DNA of 32,000 nt. Source: Promethearchaeota archaeon. Lineage in GTDB: Archaea > Asgardarchaeota > Lokiarchaeia > Sigyniarchaeales > SOKP01. The stretch's first letter is position 1; every line of letters starts with the position of its first letter. The position numbers were made by a program, and so were the translations under genes. This document shows, in pieces, positions 7,592 to 15,751 of this stretch. Where the stretch lies: assembly GCA_030606485.1 (NCBI GenBank), contig JAUWGH010000010.1, positions 1 to 32,000 of the forward strand. Direction: 5' to 3'. The notes under the pieces were generated by a model, which ran no database searches, was not told where the DNA came from, and saw only the letters and a list, made by a program, of their open reading frames with translations.

Positions 7592-10500
7592 TTATATAAG
7601 AATAAAAATTCCAGCAATTTGCAAATAAAGTAGAATCGCTGTTAAAATAATTAAAATGATAAATATTAATGTAGTAAAAAACCTCCATTTTATGGAGATG
7701 CGCCCTCTTTTTTCTTCACGATAAATAAAAAATAATAGAATTGCACCAAAAATAATAATTGAAAAAAGTATTAAAAATATATTTGGTGGAATAAAACCAA
7801 ATAATGTTCCAACAACTGAGCCATAAATAATACAATAATATATCAGCTTTACTCGGAAACTACTTTCTGGGTCTTCACTAGCTAGATCACGCATAATTGG
7901 ATAAGCCAATAAAAATGTAACGACCAAATCAACTGGTAAAGCATGAAACCAAGCTAAATTTAAAGGAGGTATTGCAATGTTTTCTTCTAATAAGATAAAT
8001 ATAACTATAAAAATGATGATAATAATAATCCCCCAAATGTATTTCCAATTTTGCTTTAAAAAATTAACAAGTTTATTATAAGCCTTTAAAATTGCAATTT
8101 TAATAGAATTAAAGAAATTCACAATTTTCATCTTTAACGCTCTGAACTTTATCAAAACATAATCGATAATTTGACCAAACTGTTTTTTTAATTCTTCAAA
8201 AAAGAATATAAATGGATATAGTAGAAGTGTAATAACAAAAAATACTGTACTCCAAATATAGGATAAAGAAAAATAATAAACAATGACACTTAATGATAAA
8301 AAAGTAGCAATCCAAAATGGAAGTGCTAGTAATGAATGCTTTTGAAATGGTTTTATATCGATGGCAATAAAAATTAAAAGAATCAACATAGCAACACTTA
8401 AATTAAATGGCCAATTTGTTGTGTATGGTTGTAGCAAAAGTCCTAAGTATAGAAAACAATTTAAAGAGAGTAAGGATCCAAGAAATAAAAATGAAATTCT
8501 TCTAATTTTTAATCTGGACTTCTCTTTAAAGACTCTGATATTGATATCAAGATAAGATAAAACAAATAATATTATTGAAGAAAAAATAATCAAATTGATG
8601 GTAAATAAAATATCTAAACTCGCGAAATATAAAGGCCAAGATATAAAATTTACGTATAATAAAAATAACAATGATCTTTTAATCTTAGTTTTATTAGTTC
8701 TGATTATTTTTATATTCCGTAATAGATAAAATAGGTAATAGAATTCAATTATAAAGAATATTATTATCAATGGGATAAATACAATTGCAAATGTAAAGAT
8801 CAAATCTAAAAACATTATGGAAGATATCATTATTGATATCCAGGAAATAATTTTGATAGAATTTGACCATTTTGAGAGTAAGAATTTAAATAAATATTGA
8901 TCAATTATCATCATAAGATGAACAGCAATACTTAATAGCATTATTTGATATTCAATTGGTGCTAAACCCAACGCTCTTTGAATAAATATGAATAAAAATA
9001 GATAAAATTTCAATCCTATAATTCCTTGGATGAATAATTTCTTTTCTTTAAGGGTTTCGATTTTTTTATAAAATCTAGACATTATAAAAAATTGTTTAAG
9101 TGTTGAAAACAATGCATAATTGGTATAAAATTGCATTGTAAAAAATAAAAATAAATTAAACCAGAGAAGGTCTGGGTTGTCTATTAAAAATCGGTTTAAA
9201 AATATGAGTAAAAATATAGATATTAACAAATAACTTGTTGTATGAATTAAATATCCATATCTCTTCCTAAAACTCTTTACAATATATAATTCAAATATTG
9301 ATAATATAAAAAGTGTAATTAAAGAAATTAATGAACTCTCAAGGAATCCAAAACTCTCAAATAAACTGTAAATTAATAGTATTAGTTCAATATATAAACA
9401 AAAAGTAATCAATGAATATCCTTTTGCTTTAAAATCAAGATATTTTTCTTTAAAATATAATTGATTTAATAAATATATTGAGTAGAATGAAAATGAACTT
9501 TCAATTAATAATAATAAGCCTATATTGAAAAAATTTAGAAGCAGAAATATCCCAGAAATCGTAATCCAGTAGATTGCAAAAAGAATTTGAATGAAAATAA
9601 AAAATATAAATTCAATCTGGAGAACAAATTTAATTTGAACTATTTTATTATAAATTAAGCTTGAAAAGAATAATAACACAAAGGATAATAATAAGAAAAG
9701 TAATGTTGTTGGAAAACCAATCAATAATACAGTAATACCTGAAATTAAATTGGATATTAATGATGCAAAATATAAAGAATTCATTATAAGAATAGAATAA
9801 ATCAAATAAACCCTCAAGAGGGAGCTTATTTTTTTATATTTTACGTTTATTTGGGATAGAAAATAAGTTGATATCAGATTTAATAGAGATAATGTTAATA
9901 GTAAAAGAAAAATATCCAAATGGAAAAGATATAGATATATAGAAAATAAATTACATCCAACAAACCAAGACCAAAGTATTATCTGATTCCTTATTTTTGG
10001 AATCAAATATTTAAAAAGATACTTATCTACGACGAAACTTTCTAAAAACAAAATACCGCTACCTAATAATGATATAAAAAATAATGAAAACAAAATCTCA
10101 ACCTCAATCTCTATTAGAAAAATCCAAACATTAAGGAGAATAGCGGTTGGAAGAATCCAATATAAGAATAAACTCAATCCATTCAAAAATTTTGTTAATG
10201 GTTTGACTTTTAATTTAATTCCAGATAATTCAATATATTTCAAAGAGCATAATAATAATGCTGACCAAATTATTAAAAATTCAAAAATCTGATTATACCA
10301 AGAAATTGGAGTAAGAACTGAAATCCATATCGAAATAAATAATGAATTAATGATAAAACATACAGAATTTAGAATTCTTAATATGAGATCTTTCTGAATT
10401 ATCTCTAAATATTCATTTTTAATTTTAATTCTTCCTTTTTTAGCCAAATTACTGAATAAATTTATTATAACTTGCAAAAAACTAAAATAGACCATTAACC

Positions 10501-13500
10501 ATGTTATAATTCCAACAGTATGAATTATTGGAATAAATAATAGGAATGCTAGGATAAGAAAAGTTAGAGGAAATGGAACAAGAAACAGTAATACAAATCT
10601 ATACTTATCTAAAAGGGGATAGAAAAATAATATTAACACTGAACTAAAAATGAAACAAATAAACATTGGAGACTCTTGAGTAAATGGAAATAATAATGAC
10701 GTAATTGTTAAAGACGTTCCAAACGCCATAATTGTCCAGGGAATTGCTTTATTGAAATTATAAATCATTTTTTCATATCGATTAAAAACGAAGAAGGTCC
10801 CTCCAAATATTGCAATTGCAAAAAATATAGAAAATAGTTCAAGTCCTGGTATAATATAAAACGAGAAGAATGTTAATAAAGAGAAATTTATAATCAAAAT
10901 AATTGAAATAACAAAATGAGTATATTTCTTGTTTAATTTCAGATATTTTGATGAAAACATGCTAAATCCTAAAATAATAAAGGAAATATTAACAGCGATA
11001 AATGGATTGAGAAGAATTGCATATAAGATAAAATAAATTAATAAAAACATTCCAAGCAAAAATGTTGTATATGAAAAAATAAGTATTGTAATTTTACTTC
11101 TTATCATAGGAAAATATGAATAAATCATTGAAAATAGCCCTATAGCGATAAGAACAATAGATGTAATTATCTCGGGCAACATATTTAAAAACATTAAATA
11201 GAAAATTAAAAATACTATATTGATTCCACTTAAAAGAATCCATAATTTTGAAAGAACCTTCCAATACTTTAATTTGTAGATTATAGGCATTAATAAAAAG
11301 ATTGAAATAATTGTAAAAGAAAGATAAGTGAGAAGAAAGTTCTCTCCAAATATATTAAATGTAATCCATGCAACCAATCCAAAGCTTTCAATCCAGAAGA
11401 ATAATAAAATTTGACCAAAGTGTTCCTTAATTTTTGTGTATAGAACGGGTAAATACAACAATGAAGAAATTAAAATTGAAATAATTAATGACCCGTTAAA
11501 ATCTAATGTTCCAAAAAGTGTAAGTGCATTAGTGTATACATCGATATCAAGGAATATTCTATAGATTATGACAAAATTCACGATAGGAAATATATTCCAA
11601 AGCCACCATCCTGCTTTCCAAATTGCCCAAGATATCTTCCATTTATAAATTCCAATTGAAAGATAAAAAAGAAAAATTCCTAGATTTAATGAGATAATTA
11701 GAGGAAGAGGTTCTTCAAGCGGAATCGGTAAATAATATGTAAATAAGAAATATAAAAAGGTAGGAAGAGATATAACAATTGCAGTTAAAAATGTATAGAA
11801 TGAATATTTTCTATATTTCTCAGGAATTTCATTAAATAATAAAACAAATCCGAATCCTGTTATGCTTAAGGTAAAAGTGAAAATTAAAATATTATTAATT
11901 AAATCATCTACAGGGAGTATAAATAAAAATTGATAAGAAATATAGCTAATTACATCAAAAATAATTAATACAATTAAAGTTTTCTTATACAAATGATAAT
12001 TTTTATCCCCAATACGACGAAGGAAAACTGAATAAAAGAATAAAATTATTCCAAGTGAAATAGTGATATTATATAATAGTAAAATATTAGTGAAAGTCAA
12101 GAAAAAGACAAAAGATATTGCAGAAATTGATCCATACAGAATAAATTTTTCAAGATGGAAATGCTTTTTGAGGTTTAAAATTATAGCAAAAAATAATACA
12201 CAAGATAAAGATACTAAATATTCTATAATAAAAAATCCAAGAGGGATCGGCTCAAAAATAGAGAAATCAAAACCTGAATATATATGAAACATTAAATAAA
12301 ATCTTAAAAATGTGATATAACTAAGTAAGAAAATATTTAAAACTCTTAAAATTAAATTTTCATTTCTAACGCGAAAAATTATAATATAAAGAAGAAAGAG
12401 AAAAATGAAAGAAATAAGGGGCTCTATATAAAGAAGACTAATGAAAAGCAATAAATTGAGAGAAAATAATTCAATTAATCGAAATTTAGATTTTCTTTTT
12501 GAATAATAATTTTTTATGAAACAGTAATTTAAAAAAATAAAAATATTCATACATAGAGTTCCAATTAAAATAATTGGATTTTCATTAAAGAATGAAAAAT
12601 TTATTGCAAAACTCCAAAATATTTCAATAAAAAATACAAGAAATGAACCAATAAATGTAAAAATAGTGATATTTTCTATAAGTATTATATACTTATCTAA
12701 TGAAATTCTTGCTTTCTTTAGATATGAAATGGTTATTGGGAATAAAATCGAGAAAATTGCAATAAAAAATGTGATTTTATTAATAATTGAAAATGGCAGA
12801 TAATCTGAAATCAAGAGAATAAGAAATATTTTTACATATAACCAAGAGCCTAATTCTATAATTTCTTTTGTTTTAAAAAAATCTAATCTAAAAACTGATT
12901 CACTTACCTTAAATAAAACTAAAATTGATGAGAAAAAAGAAATAAAATATAAAAAATAATTCAATACAGCAAGATCTGGTGGAAATATTATTATTAAACT
13001 AATAATATTGTGAAATAACAACATCACTAGGTAAGATAACGTAAAAGTAGAACCAAAAAATATTATATTATAGCAAGTTTTTAAAGAACTACTACTAATA
13101 ATCCCCAGTTTTTGCATTTTTTTTAATGTATAAATATTAAAAACGAAAAAAATCAAAATCGATATTGAAATTAAAAACTCATTTATTATAATTGAAAGAA
13201 AAATTACTGACGTTGATATAGAGATAAAAAACCAAACAAATATCTGTGATTTATTGATTAACCTCTGATTAAGTTCTTTATATTTATAACGAATAGATAT
13301 ATATTCTAATAATTTTAAAAAACCAAATATCAAATATAGCGTACAATTAATACCAATTAAAATTAGAAATATACTAAAAAGAATTAACCCTGTATTTAAC
13401 AGATCCAATATGATAATTGTAGGAAGGATAATAATTGAAACCGATAAAGGGATATTATCTATTGCAATAAACTTTTTATACCAATTTTCATGAATTAATT

Positions 13501-15751
13501 TTTTGTAAAAAATATAATAAATTGGAAGATATAAACTAATACAAGACAAAATCACAGGAACAGTTAATACATAATAAGTTCCATAAAAGAACAGAAAAGA
13601 ATAGTAAAAAATGATAAAGGAAAGAAAAATAAATGCAAAACTTGTGAATTTAATTATAAATTCTCTAGAAAAAAGTTCCTCTTTAAGAGAAAAGATATTA
13701 ATTAACACACAAATAATTGCTGTTGATAAAAATATAGAAATTAATAAAAATGAAACATTTAAAACAAAGACTAATTCAAAAAATATGTAAAATAAGATTG
13801 TAAATAATTCACCAGCAACAATGTATGAATTAAACTTTACATAATTTTGATATTTTGAATTCGAAATTTTTCCTAACTTTACTCCAAATTTTAAAAGATA
13901 ATGAAGTGTAATTGAAAAAAATAATAGGTCTAATAATAGAGCTATAATGTTAAAAAAAACTGAAATAATTGAAATAAAAATTGAAGCAAATAAAAACCAG
14001 GAAGCAAAATAACTATAATTTAGAAAATTTCCCTTAGAAAAGATTCCAATAAGGTAATTTAGAAATGCAAACAAAATAAATAATAAAGGGAATAAAATAG
14101 ATGAAATTATTAAAGAATTAAAAAAGAATCCGGGATCTACAGCAGCTACAAGGAAATAAATTCTGAAATTAATTAAAATAAATAGAAAAATTTCGATTAA
14201 AAATGAGATTATAGTCAAACATGTTTTAAAAAAATTTGATGCTTTTCTCTTAAATCTACTAAAATATAATCTATACAGGGAACTTAAGAGAGCAATTAAG
14301 AAGATTAATGCATTTATGAAAAAATATGAATAAGATATAATGAAAGGATCTGAAGTAAAAACAATATATGCACTAAATATAAAAGGAAAAAATAAATAAA
14401 GAATAAGGAAAAAGCTAGAAATGATAAGAAAATCTTGAACAATCGAAGCATTTCTTTTGTCAAGTAATTTAATCTTTGCAAAAATTTCTAGAACAAAATA
14501 TAAAACTATACAAAAAATAATTAATTGTTCATTCCAATTCAATTCTAAAATTCTGAAACAAAAAGAAGCTAAAATTATAATAGTATTAGTCATATAGAGG
14601 ATTCTATTATATTTCTTATCAGAAAAGCCAGCCCTTTCTTCTAAATAAAACAGTATATTAATAAAAACGAGTGATAAAAATGCAAGAATTGGAAAATCCA
14701 AAAATAATAATAGTGAAAATATACTGGTGATTAATGTTAATGAAAGAATAGAATTGATTTTTTGACGATTTTTATGTCTAATTTGTTCCTTTTTTCTCCT
14801 TTCTTCACTTGCCAGTTCTAAATGGTGTGTATAATGAAAATATACATATAACTCAACTTTAAGAAAGATTATAATCAGGCATAAGATAATTAATGATATA
14901 TTAAATAAGTCTAAACTAGAAAGTGGGGGCATTAATGGACTAAATAGCATATGCAAAAGAATTAATAGAATTGATATACAGAAAAAAAGTCCAATATTAG
15001 AACTAACTAATTTTTGTTTAAATTCAATTAATTCATTTAAAAACTTTCTATTTTCCTTTATTGCATTAGTAATTCTAAAACGAACATTTCTTGTAAATAG
15101 AAGCGTAATTCCATAAAAAAATACATTTAGAATAAATAAATAAAACCAGGATAGTTGAGTATAAGATATAAACGCTAAAAATACAATTTGGATTATGTAA
15201 CTAATTATAAATATGAAATTGTGTAAATTGGTAAATATCGAAGTTATACCAACTATGTGCTTAAATCTTTTTTCTGCATCATCAAATAAATCAACTGGCT
15301 TAAAGTAAAAATAAAACCAAGTGATATTATAAATTACTATAAAAGCAATTAAAGGAAAAAGTCCAAATTTTCCAGTCTGCCATTGAGAAGTAATAAATTC
15401 AACTATTGGCGTTAAAAGAACAGCAGCAAATGTGACAAAATAAGAAATATGAATCCTGGCAACTAAATTGTTTTCTATGTTCTTAAAAAATGGTTTATCC
15501 CGATATCTATCAAAACCTATATAAAAGAAAAATAATGAAAAAGTGAGGGCTAAAAGTGAAAAAGCGATTGCAAAATGAAAATCTGATTGTCCCGTAATTT
15601 GAATCGTTATAAAATCTGTAATATAATAGGTTAATAAAGCACAAGCTATTGGAGCAATAATTAAATAAAAACAAAACCACCAAACTTTCCAAATAAACTC
15701 TGTTGCTCTTCTAATTCTCTCTTCAGAATCATTTGATGATTTTGAACTCAT
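7592..15751 (-). CDS. Giant polytopic membrane protein (2719 aa, about 80-85 TM helices by eye)
   Basis: Uninterrupted 8160-nt ORF in very AT-rich DNA with no competing long ORF on the other strand. Hydrophobic 18-25-aa segments alternate with short Lys/Arg-rich loops along the whole length. Confidence 0.93.
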   Translation of the reverse strand: MSSKSSNDSEERIRRATEFIWKVWWFCFYLIIAPIACALLTYYITDFITIQITGQSDFHFAIAFSLLALTFSLFFFYIGFDRYRDKPFFKNIENNLVARIHISYFVTFAAVLLTPIVEFITSQWQTGKFGLFPLIAFIVIYNITWFYFYFKPVDLFDDAEKRFKHIVGITSIFTNLHNFIFIISYIIQIVFLAFISYTQLSWFYLFILNVFFYGITLLFTRNVRFRITNAIKENRKFLNELIEFKQKLVSSNIGLFFCISILLILLHMLFSPLMPPLSSLDLFNISLIILCLIIIFLKVELYVYFHYTHHLELASEERRKKEQIRHKNRQKINSILSLTLITSIFSLLLFLDFPILAFLSLVFINILFYLEERAGFSDKKYNRILYMTNTIIILASFCFRILELNWNEQLIIFCIVLYFVLEIFAKIKLLDKRNASIVQDFLIISSFFLILYLFFPFIFSAYIVFTSDPFIISYSYFFINALIFLIALLSSLYRLYFSRFKRKASNFFKTCLTIISFLIEIFLFILINFRIYFLVAAVDPGFFFNSLIISSILFPLLFILFAFLNYLIGIFSKGNFLNYSYFASWFLFASIFISIISVFFNIIALLLDLLFFSITLHYLLKFGVKLGKISNSKYQNYVKFNSYIVAGELFTILFYIFFELVFVLNVSFLLISIFLSTAIICVLINIFSLKEELFSREFIIKFTSFAFIFLSFIIFYYSFLFFYGTYYVLTVPVILSCISLYLPIYYIFYKKLIHENWYKKFIAIDNIPLSVSIIILPTIIILDLLNTGLILFSIFLILIGINCTLYLIFGFLKLLEYISIRYKYKELNQRLINKSQIFVWFFISISTSVIFLSIIINEFLISISILIFFVFNIYTLKKMQKLGIISSSSLKTCYNIIFFGSTFTLSYLVMLLFHNIISLIIIFPPDLAVLNYFLYFISFFSSILVLFKVSESVFRLDFFKTKEIIELGSWLYVKIFLILLISDYLPFSIINKITFFIAIFSILFPITISYLKKARISLDKYIILIENITIFTFIGSFLVFFIEIFWSFAINFSFFNENPIILIGTLCMNIFIFLNYCFIKNYYSKRKSKFRLIELFSLNLLLFISLLYIEPLISFIFLFLLYIIIFRVRNENLILRVLNIFLLSYITFLRFYLMFHIYSGFDFSIFEPIPLGFFIIEYLVSLSCVLFFAIILNLKKHFHLEKFILYGSISAISFVFFLTFTNILLLYNITISLGIILFFYSVFLRRIGDKNYHLYKKTLIVLIIFDVISYISYQFLFILPVDDLINNILIFTFTLSITGFGFVLLFNEIPEKYRKYSFYTFLTAIVISLPTFLYFLFTYYLPIPLEEPLPLIISLNLGIFLFYLSIGIYKWKISWAIWKAGWWLWNIFPIVNFVIIYRIFLDIDVYTNALTLFGTLDFNGSLIISILISSLLYLPVLYTKIKEHFGQILLFFWIESFGLVAWITFNIFGENFLLTYLSFTIISIFLLMPIIYKLKYWKVLSKLWILLSGINIVFLIFYLMFLNMLPEIITSIVLIAIGLFSMIYSYFPMIRSKITILIFSYTTFLLGMFLLIYFILYAILLNPFIAVNISFIILGFSMFSSKYLKLNKKYTHFVISIILIINFSLLTFFSFYIIPGLELFSIFFAIAIFGGTFFVFNRYEKMIYNFNKAIPWTIMAFGTSLTITSLLFPFTQESPMFICFIFSSVLILFFYPLLDKYRFVLLFLVPFPLTFLILAFLLFIPIIHTVGIITWLMVYFSFLQVIINLFSNLAKKGRIKIKNEYLEIIQKDLILRILNSVCFIINSLFISIWISVLTPISWYNQIFEFLIIWSALLLCSLKYIELSGIKLKVKPLTKFLNGLSLFLYWILPTAILLNVWIFLIEIEVEILFSLFFISLLGSGILFLESFVVDKYLFKYLIPKIRNQIILWSWFVGCNLFSIYLYLFHLDIFLLLLTLSLLNLISTYFLSQINVKYKKISSLLRVYLIYSILIMNSLYFASLISNLISGITVLLIGFPTTLLFLLLSFVLLFFSSLIYNKIVQIKFVLQIEFIFFIFIQILFAIYWITISGIFLLLNFFNIGLLLLIESSFSFYSIYLLNQLYFKEKYLDFKAKGYSLITFCLYIELILLIYSLFESFGFLESSLISLITLFILSIFELYIVKSFRKRYGYLIHTTSYLLISIFLLIFLNRFLIDNPDLLWFNLFLFFTMQFYTNYALFSTLKQFFIMSRFYKKIETLKEKKLFIQGIIGLKFYLFLFIFIQRALGLAPIEYQIMLLSIAVHLMMIIDQYLFKFLLSKWSNSIKIISWISIMISSIMFLDLIFTFAIVFIPLIIIFFIIEFYYLFYLLRNIKIIRTNKTKIKRSLLFLLYVNFISWPLYFASLDILFTINLIIFSSIILFVLSYLDINIRVFKEKSRLKIRRISFLFLGSLLSLNCFLYLGLLLQPYTTNWPFNLSVAMLILLIFIAIDIKPFQKHSLLALPFWIATFLSLSVIVYYFSLSYIWSTVFFVITLLLYPFIFFFEELKKQFGQIIDYVLIKFRALKMKIVNFFNSIKIAILKAYNKLVNFLKQNWKYIWGIIIIIIFIVIFILLEENIAIPPLNLAWFHALPVDLVVTFLLAYPIMRDLASEDPESSFRVKLIYYCIIYGSVVGTLFGFIPPNIFLILFSIIIFGAILLFFIYREEKRGRISIKWRFFTTLIFIILIILTAILLYLQIAGIFILI

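Follow-up and report, generated by a model that had tools for sequence, protein, structure and literature searches.

The window analysed here is a stretch of 32,000 nucleotides from a Promethearchaeota archaeon of the Lokiarchaeia (assembly GCA_030606485.1, contig JAUWGH010000010.1, positions 1–32,000), and its reverse strand carries a gene for a giant membrane protein (Table 1). The gene runs in a single frame from an ATG at 15751 to a stop codon at 7592–7594, encodes 2,719 aa and is single-copy in its own genome (3.75 Mb, 13 contigs, 100% complete). Its G+C content is low (23% compared to 26% across the window), and isoleucine, leucine and phenylalanine together make up 47.7% of the protein. 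The original prediction, made from the DNA letters, had described about 80–85 transmembrane (TM) helices with no enzyme or transporter motif and no soluble domain longer than about 55 aa.

Table 1. Coordinates in the window of the giant gene and of the parts of its protein (aa, amino acids of the giant protein; ORF, open reading frame)
Feature	Residues and helices	Position	Strand	Remark
Giant gene	2,719 codons + stop	7592..15751	(-)	Intact ORF; ~85 predicted TM helices, N-terminus cytoplasmic
N-terminal region	aa 1–334, TM1–8	14750..15751	(-)	Least widely shared part
N-terminal arm	aa 335–1184, about TM9–36	12200..14749	(-)	Hairpin array; length varies across the family
Conserved core	aa 1185–1765, about TM37–56 (20 helices)	10457..12199	(-)	Fixed length; no repeat partner
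Most conserved motif	aa 1369–1421	11489..11647	(-)	Trp-rich segment + helix 43 + external loop
C-terminal arm	aa 1766–2719, about TM57–85	7595..10456	(-)	About seven four-helix units, ~125-aa period
Best-supported repeat pair	aa 1831–1963 + aa 2086–2209	9125..10261	(-)	Two units apart; hhalign 97.7%, E 2e-12
Longest cytoplasmic loop	aa 2519–2570 (52 aa)	8042..8197	(-)	K/R-rich; from segmentation

The giant gene is real, working and under purifying selection, because it has a ratio of non-synonymous to synonymous substitution (dN/dS) of 0.22 against a 90%-identical orthologue, 82 homologues, and 227 columns of the family alignment that are ≥85% conserved. The homologues, recovered with a word-indexed search, are nearly all 2,500–3,750 aa long and 30–43% identical to the query, and they come from metagenome-assembled genomes (MAGs) of Promethearchaeota or Lokiarchaeota in which they are labelled ‘hypothetical’. 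Conserved positions are mainly F, Y, W, S, L, P and G, with many Trp, Pro, Gly and Asn residues invariant, and the start methionine is kept in 65 of 69 homologues. One might instead suppose a non-functional locus, either a frame left open by chance on the T-rich strand of DNA rich in A+T or a gene in decay; the extreme composition (23% GC, 48% I+L+F) would fit, and shuffled versions of the protein also look ‘transmembrane’. That explanation is already refuted, however, by 2,719 codons held open in DNA rich in stop-like triplets, by the low dN/dS, by intact-frame homologues in >100 genomes, and by position-specific invariant residues and an ordered topology.

Membrane segments were delimited by dynamic programming on family-averaged hydrophobicity, with charge left out of the calculation. 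The procedure replaced an earlier ad hoc hydrophobicity threshold that merged or dropped helices (51–54 segments), and gave 85 segments, or 84 when the same method was applied to the single giant-protein sequence. The helix number first counted by eye was thereby upheld, and the AlphaFold2 model described below agrees with it over 1,151 residues. The bare helix count is nonetheless weak evidence, largely set by composition, as 100 shuffles of the residues of the giant protein produced 76 ± 3 segments (maximum, 85) compared to 84 for the real sequence. Loops and charges, by contrast, are organised beyond what composition provides, and this organisation, not the count, is the real evidence for the topology.

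Lysine and arginine (K/R) were counted by location, with loops preceding odd-numbered helices termed odd and those preceding even-numbered helices termed even: 187 fall in odd loops, six in even loops and nine in helices. This is the positive-inside rule repeated ~42 times over, with the N-terminus inside. Segmentation of a single sequence loses register and makes summed odd and even counts useless, so the K/R analysis relied on segmentation averaged over the family, together with a local index of alternation. The index was 0.93 for the real protein (shuffles, 0.55 ± 0.05), charged residues within segments numbered 42 (shuffles, 93 ± 7), and the K/R autocorrelation at lags of 55–70 was 0.28 (shuffles, 0.04 ± 0.04). 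In five family members, hydrophobicity and K/R density each showed a period of 62–63 residues, which corresponds to one hairpin with its cytoplasmic loop. K/R alternation, hairpin period and scarcity of buried charge are absent from the shuffles; the giant protein is threaded N-in as ~42 helical hairpins, with ~85 predicted crossings.

Little of the chain lies outside the membrane on this topology: helices account for 61% of residues, cytoplasmic loops for 29% and external loops for 10%. The 52-aa cytoplasmic loop of Table 1, which appears amphipathic from its residues, is the longest run outside the membrane, and external loops are ≤21 aa; the expected lack of a soluble domain longer than about 55 aa is thus confirmed. 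Within helices, conservation is periodic with a peak at 95–100 degrees per residue (power 1.4–1.46 times the mean, in the core and C-terminal arm), the expectation for real helices with one constrained face. The conservation moments of individual helices were too noisy to distinguish a compact disc from a ribbon. In the whole protein, about six conserved residues inside helices are polar or charged (E520, E648, K974, N1392, Q2055 and E2122).

Conservation peaks over residues ~1185–1765 and divides the protein into a core and two arms. Across 67 full-length members the core is 578–596 aa long, compared to 999–1,842 aa for the part before it and 830–1,583 aa for the part after it. Of the 29 conserved Pro/Gly positions, 17 are in the core, as are most of the invariant W, G, P, N and F residues, and profile-profile comparison of windows of the family alignment (hhalign) found no internal repeat partner for the core. 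Its most conserved motif opens with a Trp-rich amphipathic cytoplasmic segment (W1371, W1375, W1378, G1381, W1385, P1389 and N1392, the last an invariant Asn placed mid-membrane), continues through the weakly hydrophobic helix 43, and ends in the only sizeable conserved external loop (aa 1401–1421, 21 aa), for which a small beta-hairpin is predicted (strands at residues 321–329 of the 1,151-aa model and 226–234 of the core model). Several helices of the core are short or broken in the AlphaFold models.

The arms are built of repeats that were revealed by profile-profile comparison alone, with none detected by BLASTP of the giant protein against itself. Direct repeats occur in the C-terminal arm at offsets of 117–130, 245–256, 376 and 493 residues (hhalign probabilities of 51–98%), and aa 775–1036 of the N-terminal arm are homologous to aa 1866–2049 of the C-terminal arm (89–96%). 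From the segmentation, the repeat unit of ~125 aa is predicted to be four helices. Aligned units of the two arms begin on same-parity helices, and therefore the units share orientation. Together, the hairpin period and the four-helix repeat bear out the repeat character that had been proposed for the protein. Longer family members have additional copies of arm segments; for the 3,754-aa member P0007, segments of the query arms (e.g. ~1979–2320) align at more than one place. The N-terminal region ahead of the first arm was covered by BLAST in about 40 of 81 homologues, compared to 60–78 elsewhere in the protein. In the Loki_b31 MAG, a 313-aa ORF (L004:5070-6011, + strand) is 38% identical to aa 1–311 and shares 11 nt with the 2,534-aa main ORF, which could be a genuine split or the product of a frameshift or an error in assembly.

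The family is defined by a conserved core of ~580 aa with invariant W, G, P and N residues, flanks of hairpin arrays, and a total length of 2,500–4,900 aa, all of which are present in the window protein. Its distribution was surveyed by scoring 400 genomes of the phylum with the core profile. Within a single order, 115 of the 153 other genomes gave matches (by taxonomic family, 100/134, 1/1, 12/14 and 2/4), compared to none of the 246 genomes of the phylum outside that order. One genus of the window's own taxonomic family had a core match in one of 10 genomes. An exhaustive HMMER profile search with the core against 1.84 billion representative proteins found 53 sequences, each a giant of this family or a piece of one, and the most distant matches that were checked also belonged to Promethearchaeota. 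A 1,892-aa member on a 16-kb contig (P0078) is deposited as ‘Candidatus Nanopelagicaceae bacterium’ and is probably from an Asgard contig binned into a bacterial MAG. Literature searches found no published description of the giant family, which is previously undescribed and confined to one Asgard order. New here are the core-and-arms anatomy, the phyletic limits, the exhaustive negative search and the shuffle control.

Intact homologues were also present in three closed genomes of the order: G135 (4,296 aa), G138 (4,908 and 3,146 aa) and G143 (3,940 aa). Like the window protein, these have the same conserved core (E of 1e-56 to 1e-67 against the core profile) and wall-to-wall helices, and they are unannotated or ‘hypothetical’. 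They differ in being much longer with more hairpin units (94–137 segments by the single-sequence method), and the similarity of their cores is far below that found inside the window's own taxonomic family. The weaknesses foreseen for the original prediction did not materialise: helix numbers did not fall far short, no known transporter domains emerged, and the homologues were long (2,500–4,900 aa) and well conserved.

Searches against known families left the giant protein without a relative. There was no match in Pfam (E ≤ 1) or NCBIfam, nothing meaningful in PDB sequence searches (E ≤ 1–10), and nothing in Pfam for the 4,908-aa and 4,296-aa homologues, in keeping with the absence of enzyme or transporter motifs noted at the outset. 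Among 14 long members, Pfam recovered one small zinc ribbon only. This ribbon is inserted in the N-terminal region of P0076 (residues ~167–225; weak TcaA-like and Zn_ribbon matches) and is the sole non-membrane domain among 16 members scanned. Enzymes of the GT-C glycosyltransferase or O-antigen-ligase-like kind have a sizeable extracytoplasmic loop with a catalytic acidic motif. No such profile matched the giant protein, and its short external loops are almost uncharged.

Structural comparison was based on two AlphaFold2 models. The first, of residues 1090–2240 (1,151 aa; 60-sequence alignment), had a predicted local distance difference test score (pLDDT) of 76 and a predicted template-modelling score (pTM) of 0.52, and contained 37–39 long helices compared to 38 by segmentation; the second, of the core alone (581 aa), had a pLDDT of 81.3 and a pTM of 0.57. 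Shape searches with both models by Foldseek (PDB), VIA-align and in the ESM-Atlas returned nothing above helical-protein noise, though Foldseek and VIA-align test large helical models poorly. The best scores were a Foldseek E of 0.05, VIA Z of 9.0–9.6 on pieces of 3–4 helices, and a template-modelling score (TM-score) of ≤0.39, and the sub-noise rows held soluble TPR/HEAT solenoids (TM-score ~0.1), three- and four-helix bundles (Z ≤ 9.6) and a DUF2339 model. Language-model feature searches with the core and both arms returned unnamed clusters only, with low recognition (1151–1248).

On these results it is very improbable that the protein is a string of known secondary transporters or membrane enzymes, too diverged to be easily recognised. 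Weak structural rows to MFS, M-PPase and MurJ, all below noise, are what such an origin might leave behind. Yet the Pfam, NCBIfam and PDB searches and the repeat analysis found no transporter domains (MFS, APC, RND and the like) and no inverted structural repeats, and the sequence databases gave no match even at E ≤ 1–10. The search of 1.84 billion representatives with the core returned this family alone, the repeats are direct four-helix units of the same orientation and not the inverted 5+5 or 6+6 typical of carriers, and no large loops are available to house catalytic sites.

Piezo1 and Piezo2, eukaryotic mechanosensitive channels with 38 TM helices, offered a comparison from the start, and Piezo is to our knowledge the largest characterised polytopic protein. 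The parallel held in the number of helices and in the four-helix units, and it failed in that no relationship of sequence or fold was found. Both are very large polytopic chains in which repeated four-helix units accompany a distinct conserved module and enzymatic domains are lacking. The likeness of the units to the Piezo blade is an analogy only, the units being without demonstrated homology. The archaeal protein has ~85 helices compared to 38 in the eukaryotic one, its conserved module sits in the middle between two arms and not at the C-terminus, and it has no counterpart of the extracellular cap, its longest external loop being 21 aa. Piezo profiles in Pfam had no match in the giant protein (E ≤ 1) or in 16 homologues, and Piezo chains were absent from the top Foldseek and VIA-align rows for both models, searches that are weak for large helical models.

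A channel or mechanosensor that works by Piezo-like logic, with the core (alone or as an oligomer) forming pore and gate and the four-helix arms acting as membrane levers for tension or curvature, is an unlikely explanation, if one with several points in its favour. It would make sense of a distinct conserved module flanked by arms of four-helix repeats and of a core rich in conserved Pro/Gly (17/29) with broken helices and the invariant mid-membrane N1392, as well as the small number of conserved buried acidic and basic residues. The same sparseness counts against it, as the buried polar residues form no evident pore-lining series; furthermore, there is no above-noise similarity of sequence or fold to Piezo, OSCA/TMEM63, MscS or other channels, and the extracellular cap and large loops are absent.

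Other long arrays of hairpins were less informative. The bacterial families DUF2339/PF10101 and DUF2157/PF09925 and the SCO7613 C-terminal domain likewise have long runs of TM hairpins without soluble domains, and feature scores of the giant protein to bacterial hairpin-array clusters were 0.78–0.83. A predicted DUF2339 model aligned with the giant-protein model over 270 residues at a root-mean-square deviation of 6.2 Å, with TM-scores (0.33/0.39) below 0.5. The DUF2339 hidden Markov model had no match in the giant protein (E ≤ 1) or in the six-frame whole genome (E ≤ 1), while control genomes do match. These bacterial clusters are far shorter (377–846 aa), and their function is equally obscure, such that the comparison explains nothing. 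The nearest published phenomenon is that of the Omnitrophota giants, likewise giant prokaryotic proteins with many predicted TM helices, which reach 147 in one chain of 147,155 aa that has a predicted extracellular localisation and recognisable domains (bioRxiv 10.1101/2023.11.21.568195; bioRxiv 10.64898/2026.06.07.730766). Helix density sets the two apart, with about 0.1 per 100 aa in the Omnitrophota chain compared to about 3.1 per 100 aa, and nothing else, in the giant protein.

Our favoured reading, held tentatively, is that the giant protein may be a membrane-embedded platform with a working core, and neither an enzyme nor a chain of solute transporters. This reading is preferred because the protein lacks soluble domains and large loops and matches no family or fold; because the repeats are direct and share orientation, unlike the inverted repeats typical of carriers; and because aromatic residues, Ser, Pro and Gly predominate among the conserved positions. 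The core, fixed in length, would be the working site, given its invariant Trp, Pro, Gly and Asn residues, its kinked or broken helices and the sole conserved external loop. The expandable arms would give it a large in-plane footprint, by geometric estimate about 90–100 nm² for compactly packed helices, or tens of nm in length for a ribbon. The strongly positive cytoplasmic face might order lipids, make the bilayer stiffer or give it shape, or relay the state of the bilayer to the core. The original prediction had proposed a helical solenoid that might curve, scaffold or sense the membrane; a uniform passive solenoid is argued against by the unique conserved core, which that prediction had not noted.

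Several observations weigh against the platform. The buried polar residues listed above (E520, E648, K974, N1392, Q2055 and E2122) and the broken core helices suit a channel or carrier equally well, the pTM of the models is only 0.52–0.57, and the gene neighbourhood across the loci examined gives no functional clue. Core matches are also missing from six genomes of the same taxonomic family that are 96–99% complete (G150, G161, G162, G165, G167 and G173), which suggests lineage-specific loss; as these near-complete genomes give no match, the protein is not essential to the cell plan of the lineage. A bolder and rather doubtful proposal is that the protein might be a new single-chain membrane machine whose 20-helix core and two expandable arms of four-helix units, the arms lying wholly in the bilayer, impose or sense curvature or tension where Lokiarchaeia form thin protrusions, as an independently evolved archaeal counterpart of the Piezo design.

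The genes that surround the family vary between loci and include sugar-metabolism, ABC-transporter, histidinol-dehydrogenase and amylase genes. Downstream of the giant gene, 28 bp away and in the same orientation, is a gene for a zinc ribbon and long charged coiled coil (window:6802-7563, −). It was rejected as a conserved partner, as the 90%-identical relative alone shares the arrangement and nine other loci are without it. An ABC ATPase and ABC-2 permease pair (window:2332-4330, +) and a NosD/right-handed beta-helix protein (window:18580-20148, +) are ordinary neighbours, unlinked to the giant gene elsewhere. The window further contains a gene for a 339-aa protein whose only recognised domain is a weak TFIIB/A2L-type N-terminal zinc ribbon and which is conserved in the close relative (window:5344-6363, −), and one for a protein with a Trm112-like zinc ribbon at its N-terminus, fused to a class I methyltransferase domain of UbiE/COQ5 type (window:17628-18509, +). 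In the closed genome G143, an SPFH/Band-7 (flotillin-like) gene (L009:207-1442, +) lies directly upstream of the 3,940-aa homologue, an arrangement seen once.

That flotillin neighbour is among the points consistent with a machine for handling lipids that is specific to the order's membranes, such as a scramblase, flippase, lipid-ordering raft or membrane-biogenesis factor, as are a chain that is almost wholly intramembrane, a very large positive cytoplasmic face (187 K/R) and the many conserved interfacial aromatic and Ser residues. We consider this explanation improbable, with no similarity found to known scramblase, flippase or lipid-synthesis families, the flotillin gene present at one locus only, and no lipid gene consistently linked.

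Beyond the tentative reading of a platform with a working core, whatever the giant protein proves to do, be it as a scaffold, sensor, channel or lipid organiser, its function would establish a new protein family. Should the topology hold, the family sustains ~3 membrane helices per 100 residues over 2,500–4,900 residues, with more than twice the helix count of Piezo and without a recognisable domain, which poses the broader problem of how a single chain with 85–137 helices is brought into the membrane and folded. The core-plus-arms anatomy offers a concrete target in the 580-residue core, and if G135, G138 and G143 are cultured strains, the family would be open to experimental study in culture. 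The hosts of these proteins belong to the group of archaea that is studied most with a view to how the membrane complexity of eukaryotes arose.

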